A DNA stretch of 64,000 bases from Actinomycetes bacterium (GCA_965278965.1 OZ257127.1:2808567-2872566); one strand, 5' to 3'; positions 6,315-33,400 are shown, counted from the first letter of the stretch. Translations and numbers: made by a program. The notes: generated by a model not told the origin, from the sequence alone.

Positions 6315-6413
6315 CAGACGGCCATCCCCGCGTAGGACGCGCGGAAGGTGTGTGCCGGCCGACCGCAGCGGACTGGCGCGCGGGACCTTTCGACCTTCGA
6401 CTCGAAGCCGAGG

Positions 6414-18002: not shown

Positions 18003-18148
18003 CCGTTTCGGTGGTCCACGGCCCGCTTCCGAGGTGTAGTTGCGCAGTCTCACGCGCACGGTCGCCAGTCTCGTGCCCACAGCTTGACCAAAGGATGGGT
18101 CCGTCGGGGTCGATCGGTGCGCTCGGGGAATCAGGGTCGGATCTCGAG

Positions 18149-18190
18149 CGGCCCTGGCAGGACTCGAGCCCGCGACACAAGGCCTAGGAA
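18149..18190 (-). repeat. Decayed copy of the 3' 42 nt of tRNA-Arg(CCT), anticodon loop to acceptor end; att-like remnant
   Basis: 35/42 identical to 24983-25024 in the same orientation. The anticodon stem no longer pairs and no 5' half is present. Confidence 0.6.
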
Positions 18191-18496
18191 CTGTCGAAGC
18201 CGGTGAGGATAGTTCTTGGGCAGCAGGGGAAACCACCCTTCCTGACTGGCGCCGAGATTCGCGCAGCCACAGCAGGCGTCCTGCGGGAATGCGACGGACT
18301 GCCGGGGCTGTCGAGCTGGGCAGCTCGCCTCTCGCGGGGTTCTATGGCGACCGGAACGACCGGAACTCCGAAATGTTGAGGGCTTCTTCTACAGCTGCGA
18401 CGAGCACGAGCACGAGCACGAGAGCGGCGGCCCGGCCACGGCCAGCGTCGACCTCGCGGGTTGACTGCCCGCACAGCGAACTTCTACGGTGCCCGT

Positions 18497-19555
18497 ATGG
18501 GGGATAGGCGGGGGTTTGTCGCGTTCACGGCGCTGGTGGTCGTCCTTGGTGTTGGCCTGGCCGCTCCGGGAGCGCAAGCAGCATCCGATGGTTCCAAGTG
18601 CTCAAAGGCTGGCTCGACCACGCAGAGCGGAAAGACGACTCTGAAGTGCGTTCGACTTGTCAGCGGTTCCTTCTGGCTGAAGTTGACGCCTGCGCCGTCC
18701 TCGTCGGCAGCCGGCATGTCGCAGCTCGCGAAGTGGCGTTCCGCCCTGACTCCCGCATGGACCGCTGACGCTGAAGCCCTGCTCGCACCAGAGAAGCTGC
18801 AGGCGGTCGCGGAGGCGGTTGCTCCGGTGCAAGCCGACCGGGATGCGAAGGCCGCGGTCGTCGCCCAGTCGAATGCGTCGACGGCTGCGATCAAGTCTCA
18901 GATCGACGCCCTGCCAGGGCAGATCAGCAGTGCGACCGCGGCCCTGCAGAAGGCGAACGCTGCTGTCGTTCAGCCGCGTGCCGACGCCGACGCGGCAAGG
19001 GCTAAGACCAGTGCGCTGCGGCCTGCGTACCTAGCAGCGAGCGACGCTCAGTACCAGATTCTCAAGTGTCAGGCGGCTGCGAAATACAACCCTTCGCTCT
19101 TGCCTTGCGGAAGCACCGCCCCGTACGACCTGCTCATTGCGCAATATCGCTCGGCGGAAGTGGCTGAGACTCTCGCGGTCGCGACCTACAACGCCTACGT
19201 GCGTGCCTCGAGTCAGAAGCTCGCCGACCTACAGGCACTGCTCAAGCAACAGACGGACCTACCGGGCCAGTACGACACCGCGCTTGCCCAGGCACGGAAC
19301 GATCAGACGATCCTCGACGACGCCGACCGCGCGCTCCAGGCGGCGACTGGCCGAGTAGTAGCGCAAGCGACCCTGCGCACCGCGCTCAATCGACTGTCGA
19401 GTTCGACTCAGAGCACCAGGAAGGCCCTCTCAGTTCGTCTAACGGGAAGTTCGTGGAGCGGCGCATTCCAAAGCTCGGCACTGGCCGCCGCCAAGCATCG
19501 AGTCCTCGCCGCGCAGGCGCAGCGCGCGTACGCGCAACTGGCCGCACTGGGCTAG
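18497..19555 (+). CDS. secreted Ala/Gln-rich coiled-coil-like protein of unknown function
   Basis: Signal peptide (FVAFTALVVVLGVGLAAPGAQA), a small Cys-containing N-terminal module, then a long Ala/Gln-rich helical region. Lower-GC codons than the core genome. Confidence 0.6.
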   Translation: MGDRRGFVAFTALVVVLGVGLAAPGAQAASDGSKCSKAGSTTQSGKTTLKCVRLVSGSFWLKLTPAPSSSAAGMSQLAKWRSALTPAWTADAEALLAPEKLQAVAEAVAPVQADRDAKAAVVAQSNASTAAIKSQIDALPGQISSATAALQKANAAVVQPRADADAARAKTSALRPAYLAASDAQYQILKCQAAAKYNPSLLPCGSTAPYDLLIAQYRSAEVAETLAVATYNAYVRASSQKLADLQALLKQQTDLPGQYDTALAQARNDQTILDDADRALQAATGRVVAQATLRTALNRLSSSTQSTRKALSVRLTGSSWSGAFQSSALAAAKHRVLAAQAQRAYAQLAALG

Positions 19556-19662
19556 GTGGGTCGGAAGGCCGCCCACGGCTAGCACGCTCACCTAGCCACT
19601 CAGCGCCATGGCGGCAGTCGTGGATCCTGACAATCATGTTGCAGCGCAGTATCGTTCGAGTG

Positions 19663-19688
19663 TGGCTCCGGCAGGATTCGAACCGGCA
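19663..19688 (-). repeat. Copy of the 3' 26 nt of tRNA-Arg(CCT), T-arm plus acceptor end; att-like remnant
   Basis: 23/26 identical to 24983-25008, with a perfect 17-nt core ccggcaggattcgaacc. Upstream sequence is unrelated to a tRNA. Confidence 0.65.
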
Positions 19689-19952
19689 TCGGACTGGCTT
19701 TGCTCTCTGGTGGATAGGTCCTAGTTCGATTTCGATCACATCGGAAACCCCTAGGCCTATCTAGCGGAGGGGCACTACTCGATGGCGGCCTCGAACGCCT
19801 TGCAGCCGAGCAGAACTGCGTTTCCCGCTAGCACCAGCGAAGCCACCGTCCTCGTCATCGTCCGGCTGTCTATCTGCTGGCGAACGTGTTCCTAGTCGGG
19901 CGAGGTCCTAGAGCCCTTCCGTCTCCTGTCGGAGGGGGTTCTTCGTTCGGGG

Positions 19953-20627
19953 CTAGACGTTGCGGCGATGATCTAGGTACTTCTGCCACCACTCTCGGAC
20001 CATCGAACCGACTGGCTCCTGCACCAAGGGCCCGGTGACTGCCGGTGCCTCTGCGCCTGCCACCGTCGCCGTTCTTGCCTCGGGCGGCATCCAGGGAGCC
20101 TCGCCGGCCTCATCGGCGGCGTTGTCGAGTGCGTCTGCTTCCGCGCGAAGGTCCTCGATCTCACGCTTCGTGGGGATCAGTTTGCGTCGAATCGCATAGA
20201 TCTCTTCCTGGACAACCTGACCGGTCGGAGTGCTATACACCGCGATACGAGTGCGGCGGTGAGCGTCCTTCCACCAGAAGTAGACAACCGCCGTCAACAG
20301 GGCGAGGCCAAGCAGGAGCGACCGAAACAGGGTGAGCAGTACCGAGATGCTCACGCCCACAACTCCGGTACCCGTCAGCCAGGGATTGTCTGCCGGCCTG
20401 CTGATTACGTAACTGTCACCGTCCTTGGAGTCGACGGTGAAACCCCCAGCGACGGCGTCGTTGACAGCGCTCTCAAGCCTTGCTCGTGCCTCTTCTGGAG
20501 GGAGTGGAACCGGAGGTTTGGGCACCCAGTTCCGACCGTCCCAGACCAGGGTCACCTTCTCGTCCCCGGCCTCCTTGCCGTTTAGCAGGAAGTCCCCCAT
20601 GGCGAAAACGTAGCCGAGACCTCCCAT
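19953..20627 (-). CDS. hypothetical membrane protein: N-terminal soluble domain, TM segment(s), C-terminal charged helix
   Basis: 224-aa ORF with a hydrophobic stretch (VVGVSISVLLTLFRSLLLGLALLTAVVYFWW). Its ATG directly follows the TGA of micro-ORF 1 (TGAATG). An alternative ATG is at 20600. Confidence 0.6.
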   Translation of the reverse strand: MGGLGYVFAMGDFLLNGKEAGDEKVTLVWDGRNWVPKPPVPLPPEEARARLESAVNDAVAGGFTVDSKDGDSYVISRPADNPWLTGTGVVGVSISVLLTLFRSLLLGLALLTAVVYFWWKDAHRRTRIAVYSTPTGQVVQEEIYAIRRKLIPTKREIEDLRAEADALDNAADEAGEAPWMPPEARTATVAGAEAPAVTGPLVQEPVGSMVREWWQKYLDHRRNV

Positions 20628-20711
20628 TCACGGACCTGGGAAACACGTATCACCGGAGCTGGACGCTGCCTCGTGCCGCCTCCGTCGGGCGTCGTTCAGC
20701 ATCGCCCACAT
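20628..20711 (-). CDS. candidate micro-ORF 1 (27 aa, MWAMLNDARRRRHEAASSSGDTCFPGP)
   Basis: Paralogous to 22759-22851. The shared 34-nt core (20682-20715) differs at 3 positions, all synonymous in this frame. The stop abuts the next gene's ATG. No clear SD; upstream GTG 20738 and TTG 20735 are also possible starts. Confidence 0.35.
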   Translation of the reverse strand: MWAMLNDARRRRHEAASSSGDTCFPGP

Positions 20712-20765
20712 CGCCGACGATTTGCGACTTGGCAACACCCAAGCGATCCCCTGAACAGTAAGTCG

Positions 20766-21506
20766 CTATACCAGCCAGTCGATCGTGGCCGAATCGCCCA
20801 CAGCTTCTAGTAGGTCGATGATTCGACGCCGTCCTCGCCCCAGGTCTGTCCACATGAGTTCCTCTATGGCGACGATATAGAGGGTCGTTGAGTCTTCTCC
20901 ATGTTGCTGAAGCGTCACCTTGATGCTTGCATGCCACGAGGTGAGCCTCACGCCCTGGGTGAACACAAGGCGCGACGGCAGAGTGCTACGGCCTTTCGCC
21001 AGTCGAAATCCGATATGGGCTGCGGCTTGGAGGAGCCGGTCCGCGGTTTGATCGATCGGGAGATCAACATGGGCGGTTGCCTCGTGGGTTGCTCCGCGCG
21101 CGCTCGTCACTGTCGGTGGCCGAGCCGCGGGGGGCGAGAGGAGCTCGCCTGTGAGCTGGTCTGGGTGCGGCACCGTGTGGTCAGTCCAGACGTGCCCGTT
21201 CCAGTAGCGCAGCTGGTCGGTCGCGTTGGGTTCGGGGTTGGCGTACCAGCCCGGCGACGGCGACGCCGACGACGACGTCATCGAGCTCACGAGCCGGACG
21301 CCCTCAACCACGATCCAGATTGCCAGTCCTCCGCCGACACAAACTAGGACAAGGCCCGAATTGAACATGACTTCGGAATATCGGTCAGGGGTGATGCTGA
21401 CGCTTATCAGCACGAACGCAGCGATTTCAACGACGAACAAGATCGCGATGCCGACACCCAACTTGATCACGCCGACCTTGGCCCTGCGTTCCATCTCGCT
21501 TCCCAT
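20766..21506 (-). CDS. membrane protein with two TM helices, a DUF2510-like motif and an unknown C-terminal domain
   Basis: GWYANPEPNATDQLRYWNGHVWTDH matches the DUF2510 GWYPDP..RYWDG..WT pattern. The start is set at ATG 21506 (or 21494), because the 82-aa upstream extension of ORF 20766-21752 is Arg/Pro-rich and overlaps a divergent ORF. Confidence 0.6.
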   Translation of the reverse strand: MGSEMERRAKVGVIKLGVGIAILFVVEIAAFVLISVSITPDRYSEVMFNSGLVLVCVGGGLAIWIVVEGVRLVSSMTSSSASPSPGWYANPEPNATDQLRYWNGHVWTDHTVPHPDQLTGELLSPPAARPPTVTSARGATHEATAHVDLPIDQTADRLLQAAAHIGFRLAKGRSTLPSRLVFTQGVRLTSWHASIKVTLQQHGEDSTTLYIVAIEELMWTDLGRGRRRIIDLLEAVGDSATIDWLV

Positions 21507-21637
21507 CCCCCGACGCGCACGGTTGCGGCGGCGTGGCACCGTCGCTGCGCTCCAAAGTATGTCGCGTGAAGTGATCGGCCGGTCGGTTCGGGATCCGCTT
21601 GTCGTCCCGAGGCAATTGATAGCTGTGAAGTCCGTGC

Positions 21638-22021
21638 TTGGCGGCGCCGGGCGACCGGCGTGCCTATCCTGAGGGAGTGAGTCAGCCGTCGCCTCTGGGG
21701 CAGGCTGCTGCCTATAACGCGGCTCTAGCCAAGGGCCAGCAGTGGGTTCCATGGCAGTTGGTAAGTGAAGGTCCAGGGCTCGCGACGATCTTCAACATCG
21801 GGTCAACGGCGGCGCTACGCGTTCGTGTGGCGGCCGAACCCGGCACAGAGCTAGTCGAAGTCGAAGGTCCAGTCGACGACGTTGGGCCTGGTCGCTATTT
21901 GACGATCCGTTTCCGAGCGAGCTGGGCTGGCCCCCCGACGTTCGTCGTTCGGTGGCGCTGGCCGGCAGGGAGCCGACTGGGTGAGGTCGGCAAGCAGGTT
22001 CTCTCACTCGAAGACGCCTAG
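21638..22021 (+). CDS. hypothetical protein
   Basis: 127-aa ORF divergent from the DUF2510 gene, with protein-like composition. Start is uncertain (TTG 21638 or GTG 21677). Two small hairpins follow the stop. Confidence 0.4.
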   Translation: MAAPGDRRAYPEGVSQPSPLGQAAAYNAALAKGQQWVPWQLVSEGPGLATIFNIGSTAALRVRVAAEPGTELVEVEGPVDDVGPGRYLTIRFRASWAGPPTFVVRWRWPAGSRLGEVGKQVLSLEDA

Positions 22022-22157
22022 TGAGGCAGGCTAATGGCCTGGCGGTACTCCGGCTACGGGGGAGGACATTTCGAGACGTCCTCAGACGCGTTGCTTGCGC
22101 GTCAGACTCGCCAACTTACTTGGGAGTCGTTGCGCAGTGGCGTCGCGTTGAACTAGT

Positions 22158-22167
22158 GGGGGGGGGG
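22158..22167 (+). repeat. Homopolymeric G10 tract 2 nt upstream of a GTG start codon
   Basis: Counted directly: 10 consecutive G at 22158-22167, followed by CT and then GTG 22170. Confidence 0.9.
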
Positions 22168-22169
22168 CT

Positions 22170-22463
22170 GTGGGCCGGCTGTTACGAGTTCTCATTGCTG
22201 CTGCCTGCTGGGCCGCCGCGCTCCTGTTTTCGTTTATCTCCTTCACGGTCGCTGAGCTTGCGTTGGCGGTGGCTTTTGCAGTGGCATTCGTAGGAGCCGC
22301 CCTAACCGCCGGAATCATCTACGCAGTGATCGCGCCGTGGACCTTCGTTCGGGTTCTCGCGTTCACGGTGGGGTTGTACGTGGTTGGCGTAGTCCTGATG
22401 AGCGCTTCGCTCGTCCCAGCTGTCATCGCGAGAGCGAACTACACCGTCCTGTCGACAGGGTAA
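22170..22463 (+). CDS. small hydrophobic membrane protein (about 3 TM)
   Basis: 97-aa ORF that is almost entirely hydrophobic (LIAAACWAAALLFSFISFTVAELALAVAFAVAFVGAAL...). Confidence 0.5.
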   Translation: MGRLLRVLIAAACWAAALLFSFISFTVAELALAVAFAVAFVGAALTAGIIYAVIAPWTFVRVLAFTVGLYVVGVVLMSASLVPAVIARANYTVLSTG

Positions 22464-22469
22464 GAGGTC

Positions 22470-22688
22470 GTGCGGCTGGCGGCATTCTTGGCGGCCTTGT
22501 CGCTGTTCATCGTCGGCGTGCGATACATCGCGGCAACCGTCGGGATTCAAGTGATCGAGAGCGGGAAGCGTCACGGTGTCGACCGCTCGGAAGACACGGC
22601 GCTCCTTCTAGGACCGTTCCTTCGGGAGTTCCGGCTCACTACCGGGCAAGGGAAGGCGCCCGGAGGCAGCCAGGCGCCCGACGACTAG
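22470..22688 (+). CDS. small membrane protein (1 TM plus a charged tail)
   Basis: 72-aa ORF starting 6 nt after the previous TAA. N-terminal TM segment (LAAFLAALSLFIVGV). Confidence 0.4.
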   Translation: MRLAAFLAALSLFIVGVRYIAATVGIQVIESGKRHGVDRSEDTALLLGPFLREFRLTTGQGKAPGGSQAPDD

Positions 22689-22758
22689 TTGCGGATCGGC
22701 CGGTTGTCAGAGTCGTGCTCGTTCGGCTTCCGTCTTCGCCCGACCAGCGGAGGCGGTG

Positions 22759-22851
22759 CTAGCCGTTTCGTGGCTCGCCTCCAGCGGCTCGGACGGCCTC
22801 GGCCTCATAGCGCTGCCGTCGGGCATCGTTCAACATTGCCCACATCGCCAT
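22759..22851 (-). CDS. candidate micro-ORF 2 (30 aa, MAMWAMLNDARRQRYEAEAVRAAGGEPRNG)
   Basis: Paralogue of micro-ORF 1. The core 22816-22849 is 31/34 identical, and the differences are GCG/GCA, CTG/TTG and GAC/GAT, all synonymous. Confidence 0.3.
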   Translation of the reverse strand: MAMWAMLNDARRQRYEAEAVRAAGGEPRNG

Positions 22852-22867
22852 GACCGGGTCTACGTCG

Positions 22868-23197
22868 TCAGGTGGCTGCTAGGGGCTGGCTGGGTCGTCC
22901 ATGGCGGGAGTATCCGCAGACTTGGGTCCGGTCAAACCTGGCCTCAAGCGTCCGGGTCAATGCCCCAGTTCTGGAGGTAGGCGCGAAGCGCCTGTATCCA
23001 CGTTCGGCGGCACCCGGTGCTGTCGTCGACATCGGACGACGACGAGCAGTACGTATGGGGGAAGGCAGCCGATCGCTTGTACCGCTGACGGCGACTTCTG
23101 CTGTCGTCAGAAGCGCGGCCTTCACCTCACCCTCTGTTGGCGCTGCGGACACCGGCTGGGCGAGCACTAGGCCCGCCGTCACTGCTCCGACCGCCAA
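22868..23197 (-). pseudogene. possible eroded or frameshifted small secreted-protein gene
   Basis: Signal-peptide-like start (RRFVLLAVGAVTAGLVLAQPVSAAP) but no ATG/GTG for it. The second half of the 109-aa frame is Arg/Pro-rich, while another frame gives the more protein-like ...TWIQALRAYLQNWGIDPDA*. Confidence 0.3.
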
Positions 23198-23339
23198 CAG
23201 AACGAACCGTCGCGCTATGTCCTGGATCGCCCTCCGACCTCCGGAAACGTACCCAGCCGGAACGATCTTTGGTGCGACTCACCGGGCGCTGACGACCGCG
23301 AGGTCCGTCCCGTCGAGCTCGTTCCTACAGCCACCGCCG

Positions 23340-23996
23340 CTACCCGCAGTATTCGGAAACGACCTGCTGCACAACCGCGCCGGCTGCTTGCTCGCCGAGC
23401 CCGACTGCCTTGCCAATCTCGACCACCCGGCCGATCTCAGAGGTGCTGAGTGTCATCGACGCGCATCCACGCGAGGCGCCGTCCTGCGTCACTTGCGTAG
23501 ACCAAAGGAGAAGCTCCCGATACGCCTCAGTCCGGCCCGCGAGGGAGAAGGGTTCCGGCATCTTCACCGAGCCGCACAGCCAGTTGAGAATCGCCGTCCC
23601 AACTGTTTCGGCGTCCGCAGAGATGTCCGGCAGTCCGACGATCTCCCCCTGCGACGAATCCTCCTGTTCCAGCCCTTGCAGAACGGACGCACCATATTCG
23701 ACGGCTCCGTCGGGCGAGGAGAACTTCTCGCAGCCGTCCTTCCAGCCCGGCTCGGTCAACTCGCCGCTCTCAATGCTGTAGGAGACCATTGCCTCGCTAA
23801 ACGCGATGGCCGCCTTCAGCCCCGCAGCATGAACGCTCGACGCGGCATTCATGCCCGTCGCACCAGAAGCGGGCTGAGCGGTCGGCGCACCAGAAGTCGG
23901 CAGAGCGGTCGACGAATCGGCCGATGTCGAGCACCCTGCCAGCGCCAGACTCGCAACTGCCGCGAATACGGCGAAAGCTGTCCTTGTCCGCCTCAT
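23340..23996 (-). CDS. lipoprotein of unknown function
   Basis: Signal peptide with lipobox (AAVASLALAGCSTS), a Ser/Thr/Ala/Pro-rich linker, and a Cys-containing globular domain. Confidence 0.7.
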   Translation of the reverse strand: MRRTRTAFAVFAAVASLALAGCSTSADSSTALPTSGAPTAQPASGATGMNAASSVHAAGLKAAIAFSEAMVSYSIESGELTEPGWKDGCEKFSSPDGAVEYGASVLQGLEQEDSSQGEIVGLPDISADAETVGTAILNWLCGSVKMPEPFSLAGRTEAYRELLLWSTQVTQDGASRGCASMTLSTSEIGRVVEIGKAVGLGEQAAGAVVQQVVSEYCG

Positions 23997-24100
23997 TCCC
24001 CCACCGCCCCCGGTATCAGCCAGCGAGTCGATCGCCGACCGGGAAGTCTAGTCGGGGACATTGGTTGTCGGTCGGTTGTCCCGAACTGGCCCGCCCTAGT

Positions 24101-24703
24101 GTGCTGCGGGTGTCCCGCATACCCCGCTGGGGAGTCGTCACGGCCGCGGCAGCCCCTGCGCTGCTCGTCACCGGATGGACGATCGCCGCGCGGCTGCAGC
24201 CGGGAGGCTTCGACTCCGCCACCCAGACGATCAGTGCGCTCGCGGCGGTTGACGCATCCCATCGCTGGGTCATGACCGCCGCCATCGTGGGAACGGGCGC
24301 GGCTCAGGTCGCGACAGCTGTCGCACTGCGGCCGGCAGCACGGACGGGCCGGATCCTGCTCGCGGCCGGTGGCGTGTGCACGATGCTCGTTGCCGCATTC
24401 CCGCTACCAGCCAGTTCGGGCACGTCGCCTGCGCATGTGGTCGCCGCCGCGGGGTCGTTCAGCTTGCTAGCGGCGTGGCCGCTGCTGAGCTGGCAGCGTG
24501 GGTCGGACGTGCCATGGGGCCTTCGGCGTCGTGTGGCGACGACGGCCGGGTGCGCTTTGGTGCTGGCCACGGCCTTGTTCTTCCTCGACGCCGCTACAGA
24601 CGGCGCATACATCGGACTCACGGAGCGTGCCGCAGCCGTACTGCTGAACCTGTGGCCGCTCGCCGTCGCGGTCTCAGCGAGCGCTACGAGGCGGGAAAGC
24701 TGA
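24101..24703 (+). CDS. DUF998-like integral membrane protein
   Basis: About 200 aa with about 6 TM. The pattern LQPGGFDSATQTISALAA..RWVMTAAIV is reminiscent of DUF998. Start is GTG 24101 or 24110, in frame within ORF 23924-24703. Confidence 0.55.
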   Translation: MLRVSRIPRWGVVTAAAAPALLVTGWTIAARLQPGGFDSATQTISALAAVDASHRWVMTAAIVGTGAAQVATAVALRPAARTGRILLAAGGVCTMLVAAFPLPASSGTSPAHVVAAAGSFSLLAAWPLLSWQRGSDVPWGLRRRVATTAGCALVLATALFFLDAATDGAYIGLTERAAAVLLNLWPLAVAVSASATRRES

Positions 24704-24982
24704 CCTTGGTGCAGGGTCGAGCGGGTGGTCGGCCGAGTTTGCGGATACAGGCCCTGGGTGGCGATCGTGTCCCAACCCGAACCGACTGACGGAGGGCTCA
24801 CCGCCTGTCGGTGGTCGACATGTACGGAGCACAGGGGGATTGCCGTGCCCCTAGCGTGCCCTAGCGAGATGCACGTTGGGGTCGCTGAGGGGCCGTCGGG
24901 GCCGCTTGAGGCCATCGCCGAACTGGTCTATACGCGTCTCTTCTGCGTTGCAAACAAGAAGAAATCGCGATCCGGCTTGAAG

Positions 24983-25055
24983 TGGCCCCGGCAGGATTCG
25001 AACCTGCGACACAAGGTTTAGGAAACCTCTGCTCTATCCCCTGAGCTACGGAGCC
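24983..25055 (-). tRNA. tRNA-Arg (anticodon CCT)
   Basis: Manually folded 73-nt cloverleaf: acceptor GGCTCCG/CGGGGCC, D-arm GCTC..GAGC, anticodon loop TTCCTAA, T-arm GCAGG-TTCGAAT-CCTGC, discriminator A. CCA is not encoded. Confidence 0.9.
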
Positions 25056-25117
25056 GGGCGTGCGCCAACAGGCGCAGCGTGATTCTAGGGAGCGGCAGCG
25101 CCCTCGCTCCGGCGTGG

Positions 25118-26392
25118 TCAGCGGCGACGGCCGCGACCTGCGTCGAGCAGCGGGAGCTCGGGCATGCCGGCTGTGTGCTGACGCTCGATCCAGTGGGGGA
25201 GGAGCTGCGGGGACAGGAGCTGGTCGGTGACGAGAGCCGCGGCCCCGTACACGCCGGCGAGCTCACCGAGCTCGGACCGCGAGATGCGCAGGTCCCGGGT
25301 CGCCAGGGGCAGCGACCGCTCGAACACGGCCTGCCGGATCGTGGCGAGGAACGCGTCGCCGGACTTGGCGACGCCGCCCCCGATGATGACGAGCGAGGGG
25401 TTGTAGAAGTTGACCATCGCCGCGATCGTCTCGCCGATCAACCGACCGGAGTTGCTCATGATCGCGTTGGCGGCGCGGTCGCCGTGCAGTGCCGCCGTCG
25501 CGACGTCCTGCGCTGAGATCGACTGGCCCTCGTCGACGAGCCGGGCCAGGAAGGGGCTGTCGCCCCTGACTGCCGCGGACAGCCCCTGGACAGCGATGGC
25601 CTGCCCACCGGCGAGCGCCTCGAGGCACCCGACTTTCCCGCACCGGCAGATCTGGTCGCCGTTGTCCGCGACGGACACATGGCCGATGTCACCCGCCGCA
25701 CCCTGCGCGCCGCGATGCAGCCGTCCGTCGGAAATGAGGCCGGCGCCGATGCCCGTGCCGATCTTGATGACGATCGCGTCGCGTGCCGTGACGGCCAGGC
25801 CACGGCGGAGCTCGCCGATCGCAAGCATGTTCACGTCGTTGTCGATCCACGTCGGTGCGTCGAAGCGCTGCGAGATGCGGATGCGCACCGGGTAGCGGTC
25901 CCAGCCGGGCATGATCGGTGGCGACGTCGGCATGCCAACCCGGAACTCGACGGGCCCGGGCAGGCCGATGCCCACCCCCCAGACCGGCGTCCCGGGACGC
26001 CGGTCCAGCAGCGCGTCGAACATCTCCTCGACTCGGCTGAGGACGGCATCAGGCCCGTCCGCGATGTCGATCCCCGCGCCGTCCTGCTCGAGGATGTCCC
26101 CGCCGAGCGTGGTCAGCGCAGCGTGCAGGCCCGTAGCGCCAAGCTCCGCCACCAGCAGCGCCCCGACGGACCCGTTGAACTCCAGGCTCCGGCTGGGTCG
26201 CCCGCCCGTCGAGCGGCTCGGCGAGCCCTCGGTAATCAGGCCCGCATCCAGCAGGTCGGCCACGCGTTGGGCGACCACGGTCCGGCCCAGGCCGGTGACC
26301 TCGCCGAGCGCGGGACGGGTGTTGGCCTGGCGGAACCGGATGAGGTCGAGCACGGGCACGAGGTGGTCGGCCGTCGTGCTGCTGCCTGCCAC
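25118..26392 (-). CDS. ROK family transcriptional regulator
   Basis: N-terminal winged HTH plus a ROK sugar-kinase-like domain, with DNDVNMLA and the Zn motif CRCGKVGCLEA. Confidence 0.85.
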   Translation of the reverse strand: MAGSSTTADHLVPVLDLIRFRQANTRPALGEVTGLGRTVVAQRVADLLDAGLITEGSPSRSTGGRPSRSLEFNGSVGALLVAELGATGLHAALTTLGGDILEQDGAGIDIADGPDAVLSRVEEMFDALLDRRPGTPVWGVGIGLPGPVEFRVGMPTSPPIMPGWDRYPVRIRISQRFDAPTWIDNDVNMLAIGELRRGLAVTARDAIVIKIGTGIGAGLISDGRLHRGAQGAAGDIGHVSVADNGDQICRCGKVGCLEALAGGQAIAVQGLSAAVRGDSPFLARLVDEGQSISAQDVATAALHGDRAANAIMSNSGRLIGETIAAMVNFYNPSLVIIGGGVAKSGDAFLATIRQAVFERSLPLATRDLRISRSELGELAGVYGAAALVTDQLLSPQLLPHWIERQHTAGMPELPLLDAGRGRRR

Positions 26393-26484
26393 GTTGCCCT
26401 GCTCCTTCCTCGAGGTCGCCCGAGTGTAAACCCCGCCAGTTACCTATTCGTTATCGAAATCAGCAACTTTCTGCCGCGAAGCGG

Positions 26485-28083
26485 TTGTCTTCTGCTCAAA
26501 ACATGCAGAACTATGTGACCGCCAACACACAGCGGACAGGGGACGGCGTGGAGCACGAGACGGGCGCAGCGGCGCAGGCCCCTGATGTCCTTCTCGCGAT
26601 GTCGGGCATCGTCAAGGCCTTCCCCGGCGTACGCGCGCTCGACGGCGTCGACCTCGATGTCGTCCGCGGCGAGGTCCACTGCCTGCTCGGCCAGAACGGT
26701 GCCGGCAAGTCGACCCTGATCAAGGTCCTGGCCGGCGCGCACCAGCCCGACGAGGGCCAGATCACCTGGAACGGCGAGCCGGTACGGCTGCACGACCCGA
26801 CGGCCGCGATGCGCCTGGGGATCGCCACCATCTACCAGGAGCTCGACCTGGTCGACGACCTCACGGTCGCGCAGAACATCAGCCTGGGCCGGGAGCCGAG
26901 CTCGATCGGGTTCTCGCGCCGCCGCCAGGAACGCGACACCGCGCGCGCCCTCCTGGCCCGGCTCGGGCATCCGGAGATCCGGCCCGACGCGACGGTCGTG
27001 TCTCTCTCAGCTGCGGGCAAGCAGATCGTCAGCATGGCCCGGGCCCTGTCCCAGGACGTCCAGCTGATGGTCATGGACGAGCCGTCCGCCGTCCTGGACC
27101 AGGGCGAAGTGAACCGACTATTCGCCGTCATCCGCGAGCTCACGCGCGCGGGCGTCGCCGTCGTCTACATCTCCCACCGCCTGGAGGAGATCCGCGAGAT
27201 CGGCGACCGCGTGACCGTTCTCAAGGATGGCCGCACGGTCGCGACCGGTCTGCCGGCGAAGACGACCCCGACGATCGAGGTCATCCGTCTGATGACCGGC
27301 CGCAGCATCGAGTTCGTCTTCCCCGCCAAGGCGGCGAACCCGCCGAGCGGCGAACCGGTCGTCGAGGTGACCGGCCTCAGCCGCCACGGTGAGTTCGAGG
27401 ACGTCAGCCTGGAGGTGCGCGCGGGGGAGATCGTCGGTCTCGCCGGCCTCGTCGGCTCGGGCCGCTCCGAGGTGCTCGAGACGATCTACGGGGCCCGACG
27501 CGCCAGCGCGGGCACGGTCCGCGTGGCCGGGCGGACCCTGCCCGCCGGCTCGGTGGTCGCCGCAGTCAACGCCGGTGTCGGGCTGTGCCCGGAGGAGCGC
27601 AAGAGCCAGGCACTGCTCCTCGACGAACCCGTCACGCACAACGTGACCCTGGCCTCGATGCGCACCTTCGCCCTCGGGCCCTTCCTGCGCGCCGGCCGTG
27701 AAGAGGCCGCGGCCCGATCGCAGACGGTCGCGCTCGACGTCCGGCCCCCGGACCCGCGCCGCGACGCCCGGACGCTGTCCGGCGGCAACCAGCAGAAGGT
27801 CGTGCTCGCTCGCTGGCTGCTCAAGGGCTGCCGGGTCCTGCTGCTCGACGAGCCGACGCGCGGCGTCGACGTCGGCGCGCGCAGCGAGCTGTACGCGCTC
27901 ATCCGCGAGCTGGCCGACAGCGGAGTCGCCGTGCTCCTGGTCAGCAGCGAGGTGCCCGAGGTGCTCGGCCTGTCCGACCGCGTCCTGGTACTTCGCGACG
28001 GCGCCGTCGTCCACACCGGACCCGCTGACGAGATCGACGAAGCAGACGTCCTGGAGCTCGTGATGGAAGGAACGCCCGGATGA
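26485..28083 (+). CDS. sugar ABC transporter ATP-binding protein (duplicated ATPase, CUT2 type)
   Basis: Two Walker A motifs (GQNGAGKST, GLVGSGRSE) and two signature motifs (LSAAGKQ, LSGGNQQK). The start is uncertain (26485 or ATG 26503). Confidence 0.85.
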   Translation: MSSAQNMQNYVTANTQRTGDGVEHETGAAAQAPDVLLAMSGIVKAFPGVRALDGVDLDVVRGEVHCLLGQNGAGKSTLIKVLAGAHQPDEGQITWNGEPVRLHDPTAAMRLGIATIYQELDLVDDLTVAQNISLGREPSSIGFSRRRQERDTARALLARLGHPEIRPDATVVSLSAAGKQIVSMARALSQDVQLMVMDEPSAVLDQGEVNRLFAVIRELTRAGVAVVYISHRLEEIREIGDRVTVLKDGRTVATGLPAKTTPTIEVIRLMTGRSIEFVFPAKAANPPSGEPVVEVTGLSRHGEFEDVSLEVRAGEIVGLAGLVGSGRSEVLETIYGARRASAGTVRVAGRTLPAGSVVAAVNAGVGLCPEERKSQALLLDEPVTHNVTLASMRTFALGPFLRAGREEAAARSQTVALDVRPPDPRRDARTLSGGNQQKVVLARWLLKGCRVLLLDEPTRGVDVGARSELYALIRELADSGVAVLLVSSEVPEVLGLSDRVLVLRDGAVVHTGPADEIDEADVLELVMEGTPG

Positions 28084-29099
28084 GCGATGTGACCCTCGCC
28101 CCCGTCTCGACCGCGCCCGAGCACTCGGCCATGCGCCGCCTGCTCGGCAGCTCGGTCGGACGAAACCTCGGGCTCGTCCTCGCGCTGGTGATCTTGCTGA
28201 TCATCGGCGTCGTGTCCGCTGGCGGACGGTTCGCGAGCATCGACAACGCGCTGACCATCCTGCGGCTGGCCTCGGTGATCGGCGTCGTCAGCATCGGCAT
28301 GACGTTCGTGATCATCGGCGGGGGCATCGACCTGTCGGTCGGGGCCAACGTGGCCCTGGCCTCCGTCTGGGCGACGACGGTCGCGACGCAGACGATGGCG
28401 ACGGACTTCCACTGGATCGTCATGGTCGTCTGCGCGATCGCCGTCTCGACCTGCGTCGGCATCGTCAACGGCATCCTCGTCGCCTACGGGCGAATAGCCC
28501 CGTTCATCGCGACGCTGGCGATGCTCGCCGCGGCCCGCGGCCTCGCCGAGATCATCGCCGACCGCAAGACCCAGATCATCAACGTCCAGTCGTTCCTGGA
28601 CTTCTTTGGCGGCGACGTCCTCGGCATCCCGGCGCTTGTCGTGATCTTCGCGCTCGTCTCGGTCGTCGGTTGGATCATCCTGAACCGCACGACGTTCGGC
28701 CGGCGCACCTTCGCCGTCGGCGGCAACGCCGAGGCCGCGCGCCTCTCCGGCATCCGCGTCAAGCGGCACACCCTGTGGCTGTACGCACTCCTCGGCTCCA
28801 CCTGTGGCATCGCGGCGATCATGATCATGGCCCGCACGACCACCGGAAGCTCTACGCACGGCACGTTGTACGAGCTCGACGCGATCGCCGCTGTCGTCAT
28901 CGGCGGGACGCTCCTGTCCGGTGGCCGCGGCACGATCGTCGGCACCGTCATCGGCGTCCTGATCTTCACCATCCTGAACAACATCTTCACCCTCAACAAC
29001 CTGTCCATCTCGGCCCAGGCGATCGCCAAGGGGGTGATCATCGTCATCGCCGTGCTGCTCCAGCAGCGCATCGCCGACCGCAGCAGAGCGGCCACCTGA
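28080..29099 (+). CDS. sugar ABC transporter permease (RbsC-like)
   Basis: 339-aa polytopic membrane protein with an ATGA overlap to the ATPase gene. Typical CUT2 permease sequence (GGIDLSVG, TTFGRRTFAVGGN). Confidence 0.85.
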   Translation: MSDVTLAPVSTAPEHSAMRRLLGSSVGRNLGLVLALVILLIIGVVSAGGRFASIDNALTILRLASVIGVVSIGMTFVIIGGGIDLSVGANVALASVWATTVATQTMATDFHWIVMVVCAIAVSTCVGIVNGILVAYGRIAPFIATLAMLAAARGLAEIIADRKTQIINVQSFLDFFGGDVLGIPALVVIFALVSVVGWIILNRTTFGRRTFAVGGNAEAARLSGIRVKRHTLWLYALLGSTCGIAAIMIMARTTTGSSTHGTLYELDAIAAVVIGGTLLSGGRGTIVGTVIGVLIFTILNNIFTLNNLSISAQAIAKGVIIVIAVLLQQRIADRSRAAT

Positions 29100-29154
29100 G
29101 CACCCCGTCCGCCCCGGCCCACACCCGTGCGGACACCCACCTGAGAGGAACCCC

Positions 29155-30228
29155 ATGAAGGCACGACTGACCAAGATCGGCACCGCCGCCTGTGCGGCGG
29201 TAGCCGCGGCGACGCTCGTCGCCGGCTGCACGAACAACAGCACGTCCTCGGAGACCACGAGCGCACCGGCAGCCGCGACCGCGGCAGCGTCCGAGGCTGC
29301 TCCGGCGAGCGAGGCCGCGAGCGCGGCCAGCGGCGAGAAGATCAAGATCGGCTTCTCCGCGCCGGCGGCCGACCACGGCTGGATGGGTGCCATCACCAAG
29401 GGTGCTGTCGCCGAGGCAGCGAAGTTCGACGACGTCGAGCTCCTCGTCGCCGAGGGCACGAACGACGTCAACCTGCAGATCAGCCAGATCGAGACGTTCA
29501 TCAACGACGGTGTCGACGCGATCGTCATGCTGCCGTTCGACGGCGCCGCGCTCACCGACGTCGCCCGCAAGGCGATGGACGCCGGCATCACGGTCATCAA
29601 CGTGGACCGCGAGTTCGACAGCCCCTTCGCCGCCCGTTCTACCGTCCTGGGCGACAACTACGGCATGGGCGTGTCGGCGGGCACGTACCTGTGCGAGCAG
29701 CTCGGCGACAACCCCGATGCGGTCATCGCCGAGATCGCCGGTATCGACTCCCTGCCGCTGACGCAGGAGCGCAGCAAGGGCTTCGCCGACGCGCTCGCCG
29801 CGTGCGGTCTGAAGGTCTCCAACCGGGTCGCCGCGGAGTTCACCGTGGAGTCCGGCGAGGAGGCGGCGTCGAACCTGCTGCAGGCCGCTCCGAAGATCGA
29901 CGGTCTGTGGAACCACGACGACGACCAGGGTGTCGGCGTCATGGCGGCGATCAAGAACGCCGGTCGCGATGAGTTCATCATGGTCGGCGGCGCCGGCTCG
30001 GCGAACGTCATGCGGGACATCCAGGCCGACAACACGGTCCTCAAGGCGACGGTCATCTACCCGTCGACGCAGGCCGCTGATGGCATCGACCTCGCCCGCA
30101 TGATCGTCCAGGGCAAGGCGCTCAGTGACCTCGTCGAGGTCGAGGCACCGCGCAAGGTCACGCTGTACGCCCCGGTCGTGACCAAGGACAACGTCGACCA
30201 GTACCTGCCGACGGCGTTCGAGTCCTAG
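29155..30228 (+). CDS. sugar ABC transporter substrate-binding lipoprotein (PBP type I)
   Basis: Lipobox (ATLVAGCTNN), a Ser/Ala/Thr-rich linker and a periplasmic-binding-protein fold sequence. Confidence 0.8.
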   Translation: MKARLTKIGTAACAAVAAATLVAGCTNNSTSSETTSAPAAATAAASEAAPASEAASAASGEKIKIGFSAPAADHGWMGAITKGAVAEAAKFDDVELLVAEGTNDVNLQISQIETFINDGVDAIVMLPFDGAALTDVARKAMDAGITVINVDREFDSPFAARSTVLGDNYGMGVSAGTYLCEQLGDNPDAVIAEIAGIDSLPLTQERSKGFADALAACGLKVSNRVAAEFTVESGEEAASNLLQAAPKIDGLWNHDDDQGVGVMAAIKNAGRDEFIMVGGAGSANVMRDIQADNTVLKATVIYPSTQAADGIDLARMIVQGKALSDLVEVEAPRKVTLYAPVVTKDNVDQYLPTAFES

Positions 30229-30295
30229 CAGTCGTCGTGGTGGGGGGCGAGTGTGGCGCCCCCCACCACGATCCCTCCCAGCATGAGAGAAACCG

Positions 30296-31474
30296 ATGAC
30301 ATCAGCACAGAACGGCCGCATCGGCATCGCGATGATCGGCTACGCGTTCATGGGCGTCGCCCACTCCCAGGCGTGGCGTAACGCCCCCAGTTTCTTCACC
30401 CTCAGCGCTCAGCCCGAGCGCACCGTGATCTGCGGGCGGCACGGGGACGCCGCTGCGGACGTTGCCAGGCGGTTCGGCTGGAAGTCCGTCGAGACGGACT
30501 GGCGCAAGGTCATCGACCGCGACGACGTCGACCTCGTGGACATCTGCACCCCCGGGGATCTGCACGCGGAGATCGCGATCGCCGCGCTCGAGGCCGGCAA
30601 GCACGTCCTGTGCGAGAAGCCCATGTCGAACACGGTGACCGAGGGCACGGCCATGGAGGCCGCCGCTCGCGCGGCCCGGCCGAACGGGGTCCGCGCCATG
30701 GTCGGGTTCACCTACCGCCGCGTGCCCGCCATCGCCCTCGCCAAGTCGCTCGTCGCAGAGGGCCGGCTGGGCACGGTCCGGAACGTCCGCGCGCAGTACC
30801 TCCAGGACTGGCTCGTCGACCCGGGTGCGCCGCTGTCGTGGCGGCTGCAGCGCGAGTTCGCCGGGTCCGGGGCCTTGGGCGACATCGGCGCGCACATCAT
30901 CGACCTCGTGCAGCACATCACCGGTGAGTACCTCACCGGCGTCAACGCGCACATCAAGACCTTCATCGACAAGCGGCCCGTGGCCGAGGAGAGCACCGGC
31001 CTGACGGGTGTCGCCGGCACCGAGCTCGGCGAGGTCACGGTCGACGACACGGCGATCTTCCTGGCCCGGATGACCGGCGGCGGTCTCGCGACCTTCGAGG
31101 CGACGCGCTTCGCCACGGGGCGCAAGAACGCCATCCGGATCGAGATCAACGGCTCCGACGGCAGCCTCGCCTTCGACTTCGAAGACATGAACCAGCTGCT
31201 CTACTTCGACGGCACCGACGACCCGAACCTCGCCGGCTACCGCCGGATCCTCGTGACCGAGCCGACGCACCCGTACGTGGGCGCCTGGTGGCCGCCTGGC
31301 CACCTACTCGGCTACGAGCACGCCTTCACCCATCAGGCGGTCGACCTCATCGAGGACATCGCGAACGAGCGCGATCCGTCTCCCTCGTTCGCCGACGGCC
31401 TCCAGGTGCAGCGCGTGATGGCCGCCGTGGAGGCCAGCTCGTCCGCCGACGGTGCCTGGGCCTCGATCGAGTAG
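30296..31474 (+). CDS. Gfo/Idh/MocA family sugar oxidoreductase
   Basis: N-terminal Rossmann (IGIAMIGYAFMG) and an EKP motif (VLCEKPM). Confidence 0.8.
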   Translation: MTSAQNGRIGIAMIGYAFMGVAHSQAWRNAPSFFTLSAQPERTVICGRHGDAAADVARRFGWKSVETDWRKVIDRDDVDLVDICTPGDLHAEIAIAALEAGKHVLCEKPMSNTVTEGTAMEAAARAARPNGVRAMVGFTYRRVPAIALAKSLVAEGRLGTVRNVRAQYLQDWLVDPGAPLSWRLQREFAGSGALGDIGAHIIDLVQHITGEYLTGVNAHIKTFIDKRPVAEESTGLTGVAGTELGEVTVDDTAIFLARMTGGGLATFEATRFATGRKNAIRIEINGSDGSLAFDFEDMNQLLYFDGTDDPNLAGYRRILVTEPTHPYVGAWWPPGHLLGYEHAFTHQAVDLIEDIANERDPSPSFADGLQVQRVMAAVEASSSADGAWASIE

Positions 31475-31503
31475 CAACCCGACCTGACGAAAGGGACACC
31501 CCG

Positions 31504-32505
31504 ATGAGCCGACCGATCACGTTGTTCACCGGCCAGTGGGCCGACCTGCCGTTCGAGGAGGTCGCGCGACTGGCCTCCGAGTGGGGCTACGACGGCCTCG
31601 AGATCGCCTGCTGGGGCGACCACCTCGACGTCCAGCGGGGGGCGGAGGACGACGCCTACATCGCCGACCGGCGTGCGATCCTCGACCGCTACGGCCTTGG
31701 CGTGTGGGCGATCTCGAACCACCTCAGCGGACAGGCCGTGTGCGACGACCCGATCGACGAGCGTCACCGTTCGATCCTCGGTGACCGTGTCTGGGGTGAC
31801 GGGGACCCCGAGGGTGTCCGGCGTCGGGCGGCGACAGAGATGGAGCTGACGGCGCGCACCGCGCGCCGGCTCGGCGTCGACACCGTCATCGGGTTCACCG
31901 GCTCGTCCGTGTGGAAGTACGTGGCGATGTTCCCGCCCGTCACGCAGGAGATGGTCGACGCCGGCTACCGGGACTTCGCCGACCGTTGGAACCCGATCCT
32001 CGACGTGTTCGACGCCGAAGGTGTGCGGTTCGCGCACGAGGTCCATCCGTCCGAGATCGCCTACGACTACTGGACGACCGTCCGCACGCTCGAGGCGATC
32101 GACCACCGCCCGGCATTCGGCCTGAACTGGGACCCGAGCCACTTCGTGTGGCAGGACCTCGACCCCGTCGGGTTCCTGTGGGACTTCAAGGACCGCATCT
32201 ACCACGTCGACTGCAAGGACGCGAAGCGTCAGGTCGGCAACGGCCGCAACGGTCGCATGGGCTCGCACCTTCCCTGGGCGGATCCGCGCCGCGGCTGGGA
32301 CTTCGTGTCGACCGGGCACGGCGACGTCCCGTGGGAGGCGTGCTTCCGCATGCTCAACACGATCGGGTACGACGGCCCGATCTCGGTCGAGTGGGAGGAC
32401 GCGGGCATGGACCGGCTAGCCGGCGCACCCGACGCGTTGGACTTCGTGCGCCGGACCGCGCTGGCCCCCTCGTCGTCCTCGTTCGACGCGGCGTTCAGCT
32501 CGTAG
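31504..32505 (+). CDS. sugar phosphate isomerase/epimerase (xylose-isomerase-like TIM barrel)
   Basis: MSRPITLFTGQWADLPFEEV..GYDGLEIACWGDH is typical of this family. ATG 31504 is in frame with ORF 31288-32505, whose upstream part overlaps the previous gene. Confidence 0.8.
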   Translation: MSRPITLFTGQWADLPFEEVARLASEWGYDGLEIACWGDHLDVQRGAEDDAYIADRRAILDRYGLGVWAISNHLSGQAVCDDPIDERHRSILGDRVWGDGDPEGVRRRAATEMELTARTARRLGVDTVIGFTGSSVWKYVAMFPPVTQEMVDAGYRDFADRWNPILDVFDAEGVRFAHEVHPSEIAYDYWTTVRTLEAIDHRPAFGLNWDPSHFVWQDLDPVGFLWDFKDRIYHVDCKDAKRQVGNGRNGRMGSHLPWADPRRGWDFVSTGHGDVPWEACFRMLNTIGYDGPISVEWEDAGMDRLAGAPDALDFVRRTALAPSSSSFDAAFSS

Positions 32506-33400
32506 CGAGCCCGGCCCGAAGCCGGCGCATCGCGGGCCGGTACTCCAGCAGCCACCACGAGACGGAGTACGTCGCGACGGCGACGATCGCCCCGTACATC
32601 GCGGCCATGAGGCTGTGCTGGTGGAGCACCTGCGTCGCCACGATGATCGCTGCGGCGAGCAGGACCGCCCCCGCCGACCACCAGCGACGGTCCCGACGGA
32701 TCCACGCGATCGCGAGCGTGACCGACCAGAGCACGTGGACGCTGGGGAAGTCGCCGTAGTCCGGGTTGGCGAACATGTGCTGGTCCATGTAGCGCATCCA
32801 CGAGCCGAGGACGTCCCCGTACGCGCCCTGGCTCAGGGCGATCGTGTCGACGTCGGTCTGGAAGAGGAAGAACGTCGTGATGGCGGTGCCGACGCCGACG
32901 AGGCCGGCGACCAAAACCGTCCGCAGCTGGCGGTCGACGCGACGCGCCGCCAGGAATGTCACGGTGACGACGACCCAGACGTAGGTGAACAGGTACGGCA
33001 CGATGAACGCAGGGATCGTCGGGACGTACTGGTCCCAGTGCCCGCGGACGGAGTGGCTGCCCAGCAGGGGCGCGTTGGCCGCGCCATACGCGGTCATGAA
33101 CACCGGAAGCAGCACCAGCAGAACGATGTTCGTCCAGCCGATCACGGGGATGCGCCCGTGCCGGCCTGTTGGTGCTCCGGCGGTGCCGCGGCGCAGCAGG
33201 ACGATGTACGTCGGGAGGGCGACGAGGAAGGCGACGCCCTCGGCGGCGGGGAGCAGGTAGCCCGCCTCGAAGGCGACGGAGCCCCACGCGCCGGCGCACA
33301 TGACGGCGAACACGACCCACGTCGCGACGCGTCCCAGCGTGGATGGCGTCGACGGTTCGAAGCCCAGCCCGGGGATCGTCGGACGTGGGTCGTCGGGCAC
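32495..33400 (-). CDS. PAP2-superfamily (PAP2_C / inositol-phosphotransferase-like) integral membrane protein
   Basis: 301-aa polytopic protein. FPSVHVLWSV and TQVLHQHSLMAAMYG resemble the PAP2 C2/C3 motifs. Call is tentative. Confidence 0.5.
   Translation of the reverse strand: MPDDPRPTIPGLGFEPSTPSTLGRVATWVVFAVMCAGAWGSVAFEAGYLLPAAEGVAFLVALPTYIVLLRRGTAGAPTGRHGRIPVIGWTNIVLLVLLPVFMTAYGAANAPLLGSHSVRGHWDQYVPTIPAFIVPYLFTYVWVVVTVTFLAARRVDRQLRTVLVAGLVGVGTAITTFFLFQTDVDTIALSQGAYGDVLGSWMRYMDQHMFANPDYGDFPSVHVLWSVTLAIAWIRRDRRWWSAGAVLLAAAIIVATQVLHQHSLMAAMYGAIVAVATYSVSWWLLEYRPAMRRLRAGLATS

Follow-up and report, generated by a model that had tools for sequence, protein, structure and literature searches.

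We analyzed a 64,000-nt stretch of genomic DNA from an uncultured actinomycete (GCA_965278965.1, OZ257127.1:2808567-2872566; hereafter the window), in which an intact tRNA-Arg(CCT) gene is followed on its 3' side by two partial copies of its own 3' end, termed copy A and copy B. The 6.8 kb enclosed between copy A and the tRNA gene (hereafter the island) is probably the fossil of one or more integrative elements, at least one of which would have been inserted by an integrase that was subsequently lost. We favor a fossil because the distal repeats have diverged by 11-16%, because copy A carries changes at invariant T-loop positions, and because no arm sites are found at either copy. An earlier note on this DNA, made from its sequence alone, had interpreted the repeats as scars of site-specific integration into a tRNA gene, and this interpretation is now supported by the extents of the repeats, by an arm-site motif next to the tRNA, and by the hypervariability of the tRNA 3' side in related loci. 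The scar itself is of a well-known genomic type and does not represent a new system.

Partial tRNA copies, composition, and an arm-site motif

ARAGORN located two tRNAs in the window, one of them tRNA-Arg(CCT) on the minus strand at 24982-25055. Rfam RF00005 places the same gene at 24983-25055 with a score of 65.7 bits, in agreement with the earlier description of an intact minus-strand gene. We scanned 46 nt of the tRNA 3' end against both strands of the window and recovered the two copies that had been reported at 18149-18190 and, with a 17-nt core, at 19663-19688 (Table 1). Copy A is identical to the tRNA at 36/46 positions over 18148-18193 (84% over 44 nt at 18147-18190). It starts with the TTCCTA of the anticodon loop and has accumulated 7 substitutions in 44 nt, some of them at invariant T-loop positions; marked by the T-loop changes T54C and A58G, it is predicted to be non-functional. 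Copy A forms the distal boundary of the island, where it adjoins the blaI/blaR1 flank. Copy B is identical at 24/27 positions over 19662-19688 (3 substitutions), starts with the 5' strand of the T-stem, and contains a perfect 17-nt run, ccggcaggattcgaacc; the 46-nt probe at this position (19662-19707) yields 30/46. The two copies share the orientation of the tRNA and are located on its 3' side, and in both the identity stops exactly at the tRNA 3' end. Outside these positions, the 46-nt probe finds nothing better than 26/46. We also scanned both strands of 200 windows simulated with a first-order Markov model; none contained a match above 29/46 or 21/27, and copy A and copy B thus exceed 200 of 200 simulations. 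The acceptor stem of the intact tRNA contains a T4-G69 wobble (5' strand GGCTCCG versus 3' strand CGGGGCC), where the related loci L016 and L020 have C4. Such a wobble would be in line with an element having brought in the 3' half, without being diagnostic of it.

The composition of the DNA shifts at the same boundaries. Measured over 18194-24981, the island has a GC content of 64.6%, versus 70.5% for the remainder of the window. The drop in GC described in the earlier note is thus real, but its estimate of 50-55% was too low, as 500-nt sliding windows inside the island range from 60.6% to 67.6%. The GC content at third codon positions (GC3) is 0.71-0.79 in the enclosed genes, compared with 0.89 +/- 0.05 in 50 genes outside. 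The abutting genes are genome-typical (GC3 of 0.88 for blaR1 and 0.91 for ROK), and the shift begins and ends at copy A and the tRNA, respectively. Among the 65 CTAG sites in the window, 28 are located inside the island (43% in 10.6% of the window) and 37 outside. A CTAG cluster that had been noticed before was confirmed with eight sites; it lies largely in a non-coding stretch on the tRNA-ward, island-interior side of copy B, for which we found neither an Rfam match nor an arm-site motif.

Table 1. Features of the island and its borders, in window coordinates
Feature	Position	Strand	Evidence
Copy A, putative displaced tRNA-Arg fragment, anticodon loop to 3' end (anticodon-class att scar)	18148..18193	-	36/46
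Secreted or membrane-anchored protein, N-terminal signal-like segment, 352-364 aa (352 from ATG)	18461/18497..19555	+	Open reading frame (ORF), GC3
Copy B, putative displaced tRNA-Arg fragment, T-stem to 3' end (T-stem-class att scar)	19662..19688	-	24/27
CTAG-rich non-coding stretch, tRNA-ward of copy B	19689..19952	.	8 CTAG sites in 19700-19990
Single-transmembrane protein, 224 aa	19953..20627	-	ORF
DUF2510 membrane protein, two transmembrane segments	20766..21752 (20766-21494 from M87)	-	Pfam PF10708, E=4e-9
Two small membrane ORFs, 97 aa (22170-22463) and 72 aa (22470-22688)	22170..22688	+	ORFs
Predicted lipoprotein, lipobox LAGC, 218 aa	23340..23996	-	ORF, GC3 0.74, signal-like segment
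DUF998 multi-pass membrane protein, convergent on tRNA	24110..24703	+	Pfam PF06197, E=4e-24
tRNA-proximal flank, P'-arm-like	24840..24981	-	Tandem GGGCACG pair
Intact tRNA-Arg(CCT), putative integration target and regenerated attL core	24982..25055	-	ARAGORN, Rfam RF00005

No integrase, recombinase, phage or conjugation gene, or remnant of one, was detected in the island by six-frame Pfam, PHROGs, PADLOC and NCBIfam searches. Pfam searches of the ORFs and of all six frames of 18100-25060 returned DUF2510 and DUF998 only, with no PF00589 or any other recombinase family. PHROGs gave one marginal match of unknown function (E=0.003), which falls on the DUF2510 stretch, PADLOC found no defense-system protein, and NCBIfam produced no match. 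A tblastn search with two tyrosine integrases from motif-bearing viral contigs (see below) yielded no match in the island either, and none of 10 unassigned ORFs elsewhere in the window proved to be an integrase. These profile searches bear out the earlier statement that the region lacks integrase, excisionase, transposase, replication and phage structural genes. Using blastn, the island was compared with 50,697 phage records and with a plasmid collection, and in both cases only the tRNA was matched; one phage match corresponds to the attP/integrase end of Microbacterium phage Min1. Neither the tRNA half nor copy B has an exact match in IMG/VR.

The tRNA-proximal flank contains a tandem pair of GGGCACG motifs at 24844-24861 (units at 24844 and 24855, minus strand), which reads CTAGGGCACGCTAGGGGCACGG in the tRNA sense and is preceded by GTGCATC. 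With a spacing of 11 nt, the two units share the orientation of the tRNA and occupy positions 121-138 nt beyond its end; CGATTTCTTCTTGTTTGCAACG begins 15 nt beyond the tRNA end in the same sense. This is the sole GGGCAC(G/A) pair with a 10-12-nt spacing in the entire 64 kb. Of the simulated windows, 2% contain a pair of this kind; a post hoc estimate puts its probability at the given position and strand at ~5e-6. Related metagenome loci (described below) contain a tandem TTGGGCACGG with the same 11-nt spacing, ~120 nt out from the tRNA and within a conserved stretch. The motif is intact in L018, L020, L024 and L026, at 117-129 nt and in the same orientation, and degenerate in L017 and in the L023 second copy; the preceding GTGCATC is also present in L017, L020 and L023. 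Both arms of a small island in L020 carry the motif, and in L017 the distal-arm tandem is intact and the proximal one degenerate. The inner flanks of the distal repeats are conserved as well, with ATTGGGCACGTATTGGGCACGAC upstream, followed after ~45 nt by CGTTGGTAnCAAACAnnTCTTG...CGATACTC and then by the core (L014, L017/L022, L029 and partly L020).

A scan of IMG/VR for TTGGGCACGNNTTGGGCACG returned six contigs. In L035 (~8520-8800), L036 (~6130-6410) and L040 (~2270-2545), an 11-nt-phased TTGGGCACG is positioned 110-170 nt from cores resembling a tRNA 3' end, and in L035 and L036 the motif adjoins Pfam-confirmed tyrosine integrase genes. Following the motif, the window has the DUF998 gene in the place that the integrase gene occupies in L035. 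Based on its occurrence at a similar distance in relatives and beside tyrosine integrase genes in IMG/VR, we read the motif as a candidate arm-type binding site for an integrase or excisionase, and 24840-24981 as a putative P'-arm remnant. This type of arm site may be shared across tRNA-targeting actinophage integrases. A position weight matrix scan of the island revealed no further arm sites, and hidden Markov models of the P and P' arms of the relatives found no match in the window. In global and local alignments, the window arms did not score above shuffles when compared with the arms of the relatives. A shared TCCTCACC at equal offset in the inner arms of copy A and L015 was not significant.

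The tRNA 3' side in related loci

The nearest ROK protein in the protein database shares 78% identity with the one in the window, and the genes adjoining ROK differ in the contigs concerned. A scan of genome contigs for ROK identified relatives with 67-75% identity, in which no tRNA follows ROK. GTDB relatives and the two closest contigs are syntenic with the window only to the right of 25157 and have other genes after ROK. None of the comparators examined has blaR1 adjoining tRNA-Arg. We scanned metagenome contigs with the exact 42-nt 3' half of the tRNA and obtained 18 loci, in which these 42 nt are identical. Three of them (L014, L016 and L019) carry a homolog of window 33430-34824 on the tRNA 5' side and thus represent true relatives. 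The tRNA 3' side differs in every metagenome locus examined. A syntenic 5' side together with a variable 3' side indicates an integration hotspot.

The 5' side is not untouched in the window. A ROK regulator, a sugar ABC operon and a 301-aa ORF (25118-33400, GC3 0.85-0.95) are located there between tRNA-Arg and the 33430-34824 homolog, which in L014, L016 and L019 is found within ~1-1.7 kb of the tRNA. The tRNA 5' side has thus also been remodeled in this genome, by DNA of native composition.

In seven loci (L014, L015, L017, L020, L022, L023 and L029) we found a second partial copy of the tRNA that runs from the TTCC of the anticodon loop to GGCCAC, an extent identical to that of copy A. Where the tRNA and the second copy are present on one contig, only 0.8-2.3 kb separate them, and this DNA contains no integrase. 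A complete 2.3-kb island (L017:208-2600, equivalent to L022:8407-10788) encodes HxlR, epimerase and DUF1330 proteins, and a complete 1.6-kb island (L020:1711-3451) an AAA_14/DUF4143 ATPase. Both arms of these two islands are conserved, with nhmmer E-values of 1e-26 to 1e-37, and neither island codes for an integrase; judged by their sequences, they are candidate trans- or cis-mobilizable mini-elements. An HTH_17 protein and a BrnT toxin are located between the repeats of L014, where we read the adjacent ORFs as a BrnA antitoxin and a nucleotidyltransferase. L017 and L022 are 99.3% identical through tRNA, island and repeat and diverge beyond. L019 corresponds to L022 minus 6 kb (L022:4713-10714), the contigs being 98% identical. 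The missing segment begins precisely at the 3' end of the tRNA and extends into a small ion-channel-like gene, of which L019 retains a truncated version. The pattern resembles an aberrant deletion or excision with one end fixed at the att core.

A scenario for the island and its alternatives

In our proposed scenario, elements would have entered the tRNA 3' end by tyrosine integrase-mediated, site-specific recombination. Each integration would split the tRNA gene, with the element bringing a replacement 3' part and the old 3' part ending up on the opposite side of the inserted DNA. Copy A would be such a displaced fragment, ranging from the anticodon loop to the 3' end, and copy B most likely a second one, left by an element with another crossover position. 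The region is probably an accretion of two remnants, of ~5.3 kb and ~1.5 kb, generated by integrases of different crossover class; alternatively, copy B may be an internal relic. The earlier note had proposed two integrations with different crossover extents. The extents do differ (anticodon versus T-stem class), but exactly two islands are only a probable count, and no difference in composition separates the segments on either side of copy B. Since then, the integrase would have been deleted, together with whatever genes the elements had for excision, replication, transfer or phage functions, leaving a proximal arm with the tandem GGGCACG, two diverged core repeats, and eight lineage-restricted membrane, lipoprotein and secreted genes.

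Several observations weigh against this scenario. No empty site or closely related genome was found, and the insertion is thus something that we infer only. The proximal flank resembles the P' arms of the relatives at the motif level only, with neither global alignment nor nhmmer being significant, and no P-arm sites or significant arm similarity are seen beside copy A or copy B. Given its short length and a T-arm common to many tRNAs, copy B may have a different origin. The DUF998 gene has an ordinary overall GC content (0.71), and a low GC3 is likewise seen for this gene in the other genome where it is present. Finally, two cargo genes have homologs in other uncultured actinobacteria with 77-87% identity, compared with 78% for the core ROK protein. 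The cargo has thus diverged no less than core genes have, which speaks against recent insertions and against recent import from a distant donor.

It appears unlikely, but deserves consideration, that the cassettes are still functional and move without an integrase of their own, as cis-mobilizable elements (CIMEs) do. A cognate tyrosine integrase encoded elsewhere in the genome, or provided by a phage or by an actinomycete integrative and conjugative element (AICE), would then bind GGGCACG and excise and re-integrate the cassettes in trans, or in cis after accretion. The complete mini-islands of the relatives (L017/L022 and L020), which combine conserved arms on either side with direct repeats and lack an integrase, are what one would expect in this case, as is the apparent further insertion at the distal repeat of the island when L017 is compared with L022. 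The gene after the P' arm is not an integrase in 6/6 relative loci and in the window, a uniformity that is odd for random decay. The proximal arm motif is retained in the window, and the idea that such remnants can be mobilized in cis is well established (PMC5704250, PMC9513070). However, the distal cores are only 84% and 89% identical to the tRNA, copy A lacks invariant T-loop bases, neither distal copy has arm sites beside it, and the unassigned ORFs of the window include no integrase. There is also no circular form and no occurrence of the same island in another context in evidence. The earlier note had left the choice between eroded elements and elements mobilized in trans; the 11-16% divergence of the repeats and the missing P-arm sites favor erosion over mobilization in trans. 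We thus infer that the island is at present immobile.

Slightly less probable still is an ordinary patch of flexible genome, assembled by illegitimate or homologous recombination, in which the tRNA pieces would be a decayed tRNA duplication or fragments carried in with other DNA. The missing integrase, empty site and P arm are in line with this explanation, and so are the occurrence of cargo genes singly and in varied contexts elsewhere and the rearranged tRNA 5' side, where the ROK-ABC operon separates the tRNA from the 33430 homolog. Against it speak two fragments that are both 3' portions ending exactly at the tRNA 3' end and starting at two canonical crossover positions, that lie 3' of the tRNA and share its orientation, and at which the composition shift begins and ends. 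The arm motif at a canonical distance and the same repeat extent in seven related loci argue against it as well. We give equally little credence to a more far-reaching idea, in which tRNA-Arg(CCT) would be a capture platform for integrase-less cassettes with attP-type arms and 11-nt-phased GGGCACG, moved in trans by an integrase located elsewhere, and the window would hold an old array of them. If true, this would amount to integron-like or satellite-like gene shuffling at a tRNA gene. Chance similarity in GC-rich DNA, to which the 15-nt probe taken by itself might point (5 matches with 3 mismatches allowed versus 2.2 expected, not significant), is effectively refuted by the full-length matches, which lie above all 200 simulations, and is opposed by the orientation and position of the copies and by their coincidence with the composition boundaries.

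The fossil scenario fixes the boundaries of 6.8 kb of horizontally acquired or reshuffled DNA in this genome and explains why the DNA from blaR1 to tRNA-Arg is occupied by eight orphan genes for membrane and secreted proteins. Eight plausible genes are counted, one of them a doubtful 127-aa ORF. Signal-peptide, lipobox or transmembrane-like segments are present in 7/8 ORFs, consistent with the earlier characterization of the cargo as membrane, secreted or unknown proteins. The 352-364-aa gene is the sole gene between copy A and copy B. Its protein family is tiny, with 25 matches at E<=1e-3 among 1.84 billion representatives. A 77%-identical homolog is present on Logan contig L041, where homology is limited to the gene and ~40 nt upstream (18459-19555). 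A hexanucleotide tandem repeat (GCACGA, ~4 units) is located upstream of the gene at ~18399-18424.

The DUF2510 protein likely starts at M87 (21494), which would give a protein of 242 aa. Among 5.8 billion proteins it has two matches, itself and P0242, and is thus restricted to this genome; P0242 is an 82%-identical DUF2510 paralog on the same 3.68-Mb contig, outside the window, and a second related island may exist there. The DUF998 gene forms a single-gene patch (24089-24728, the gene and ~20 nt on each side) that is 86% identical at the nucleotide level to L032:9981-10614 (JGI contig L032/L033), where it is surrounded by otherwise unrelated genes and no tRNA. Its neighbors differ again in L034/L042 and in L044. 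Its GC3 is ~0.78 in both genomes, versus 0.85-0.93 for neighboring genes. We considered DUF998 as a native neighbor of the locus, as an Na/H antiporter ortholog adjoins ROK in L013 and is found near DUF998 in L034 and L042. This idea was rejected because the gene orders are incompatible and the context differs in 4/5 genomes examined (L034 and L042 share one). With DUF2510 having only a paralog in the same genome, and the DUF998 and 364-aa genes occurring as single-gene patches in varied contexts, the cargo appears, from these sequence comparisons, to belong to a lineage-restricted, itinerant gene pool.

The remaining cargo offered fewer clues. No match in Pfam, PHROGs, PADLOC or NCBIfam was obtained for the 97-aa and 72-aa ORFs, and none in these databases or the PDB for the lipoprotein. 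The AlphaFold2 model of the latter is all-helical with a pLDDT of 56, too poor for a fold search; PDB sequence searches with three cargo proteins gave no match. The GTG start codon of the 97-aa membrane ORF is preceded, at a distance of two bases, by a run of ten G residues (22158-22167), which is unusual and could represent a slipped-strand switch. Immediately upstream of the 224-aa gene is a small ORF (~20643-20726) with a paralog at ~22763-22853, after which no gene follows. The two share a 55-nt direct repeat (20661-20715 and 22795-22849, 80% identical) and are encoded on the minus strand, each beginning with (MA)MWAMLNDARR.

Comparison with known tRNA-targeting elements

The island shares its target with phages but not their gene content. 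No structural, lysis or regulatory phage genes were found in it with PHROGs and blastn, which sets it apart from a prophage. Unlike an AICE, it lacks int, rep and FtsK/TraB-type transfer genes in six-frame Pfam searches, and unlike an anti-phage defense island it contains no protein known to PADLOC. The attP region of Microbacterium phage Min1 matches the tRNA of the window, and Streptomyces phage VWB integrates at tRNA-Arg(AGG). In both cases the same type of tRNA is targeted, the attP core covers its 3' portion, and attP is adjoined by a tyrosine integrase gene. Both are complete phages, however, and we found no DNA or protein similarity between them and the window cargo. The phased GGGCACG ~120 nt from the core is a candidate arm-type site common to tRNA scars and phage attP sites.

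The closest parallel in architecture is provided by the tDNA islands cataloged by Islander (Hudson, Lau & Williams 2015, PMC4383910; Williams 2002), where a regenerated tRNA and a displaced, co-oriented 3' fragment mark the two ends. Islander lists 2083 anticodon-centered and 1836 T-stem islands (PMC4383910). Copy A corresponds to the anticodon-centered class and copy B to the T-stem class, and a tandem arrangement of fragments is shared as well. An integrase gene per island and intact att sites are required by Islander, whereas our island has no integrase and its fragments are 11-16% diverged; integrase-dependent island finders would thus miss it. In Streptomyces, accretion at tRNA-Arg and integrase-less remnants flanked by direct repeats have been described (Choufa et al. 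2022, PMC9513070). These arrays likewise form at an actinobacterial tRNA-Arg hotspot, with remnants separated by direct repeats and one old remnant devoid of mobility genes. They contain recognizable AICEs or defective AICEs with int and traB and have identical repeats, neither of which is seen in the window, whose host is an uncultured, non-Streptomyces actinomycete.

A CIME is an integrase-less element that keeps its att sites (Guedon et al. 2017, PMC5704250). The island is similar in that it has no integration or transfer genes and is arranged in tandem at a tRNA 3' end. It may differ in its att sites, as a CIME by definition retains both attL and attR. The attL of the window has an intact core and the tandem GGGCACG motif; the attR candidates appear degenerate (84% and 89% identical to the tRNA) and have no detectable arm sites. 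Six-frame Pfam searches revealed no conjugation relic, and descent from an integrative and conjugative or integrative and mobilizable element would be hypothetical. The main added value of our analysis lies in the picture of a hotspot and its arm sites in an uncultured lineage: the tRNA-Arg(CCT) 3' side emerges as a recurrent integration hotspot in poorly known freshwater and soil actinomycetes. The mini-islands with intact arms (L017/L022 and L020) represent the more interesting lead; if trans-mobilization occurs, they would represent the equivalent of CIMEs or satellites in actinobacteria.

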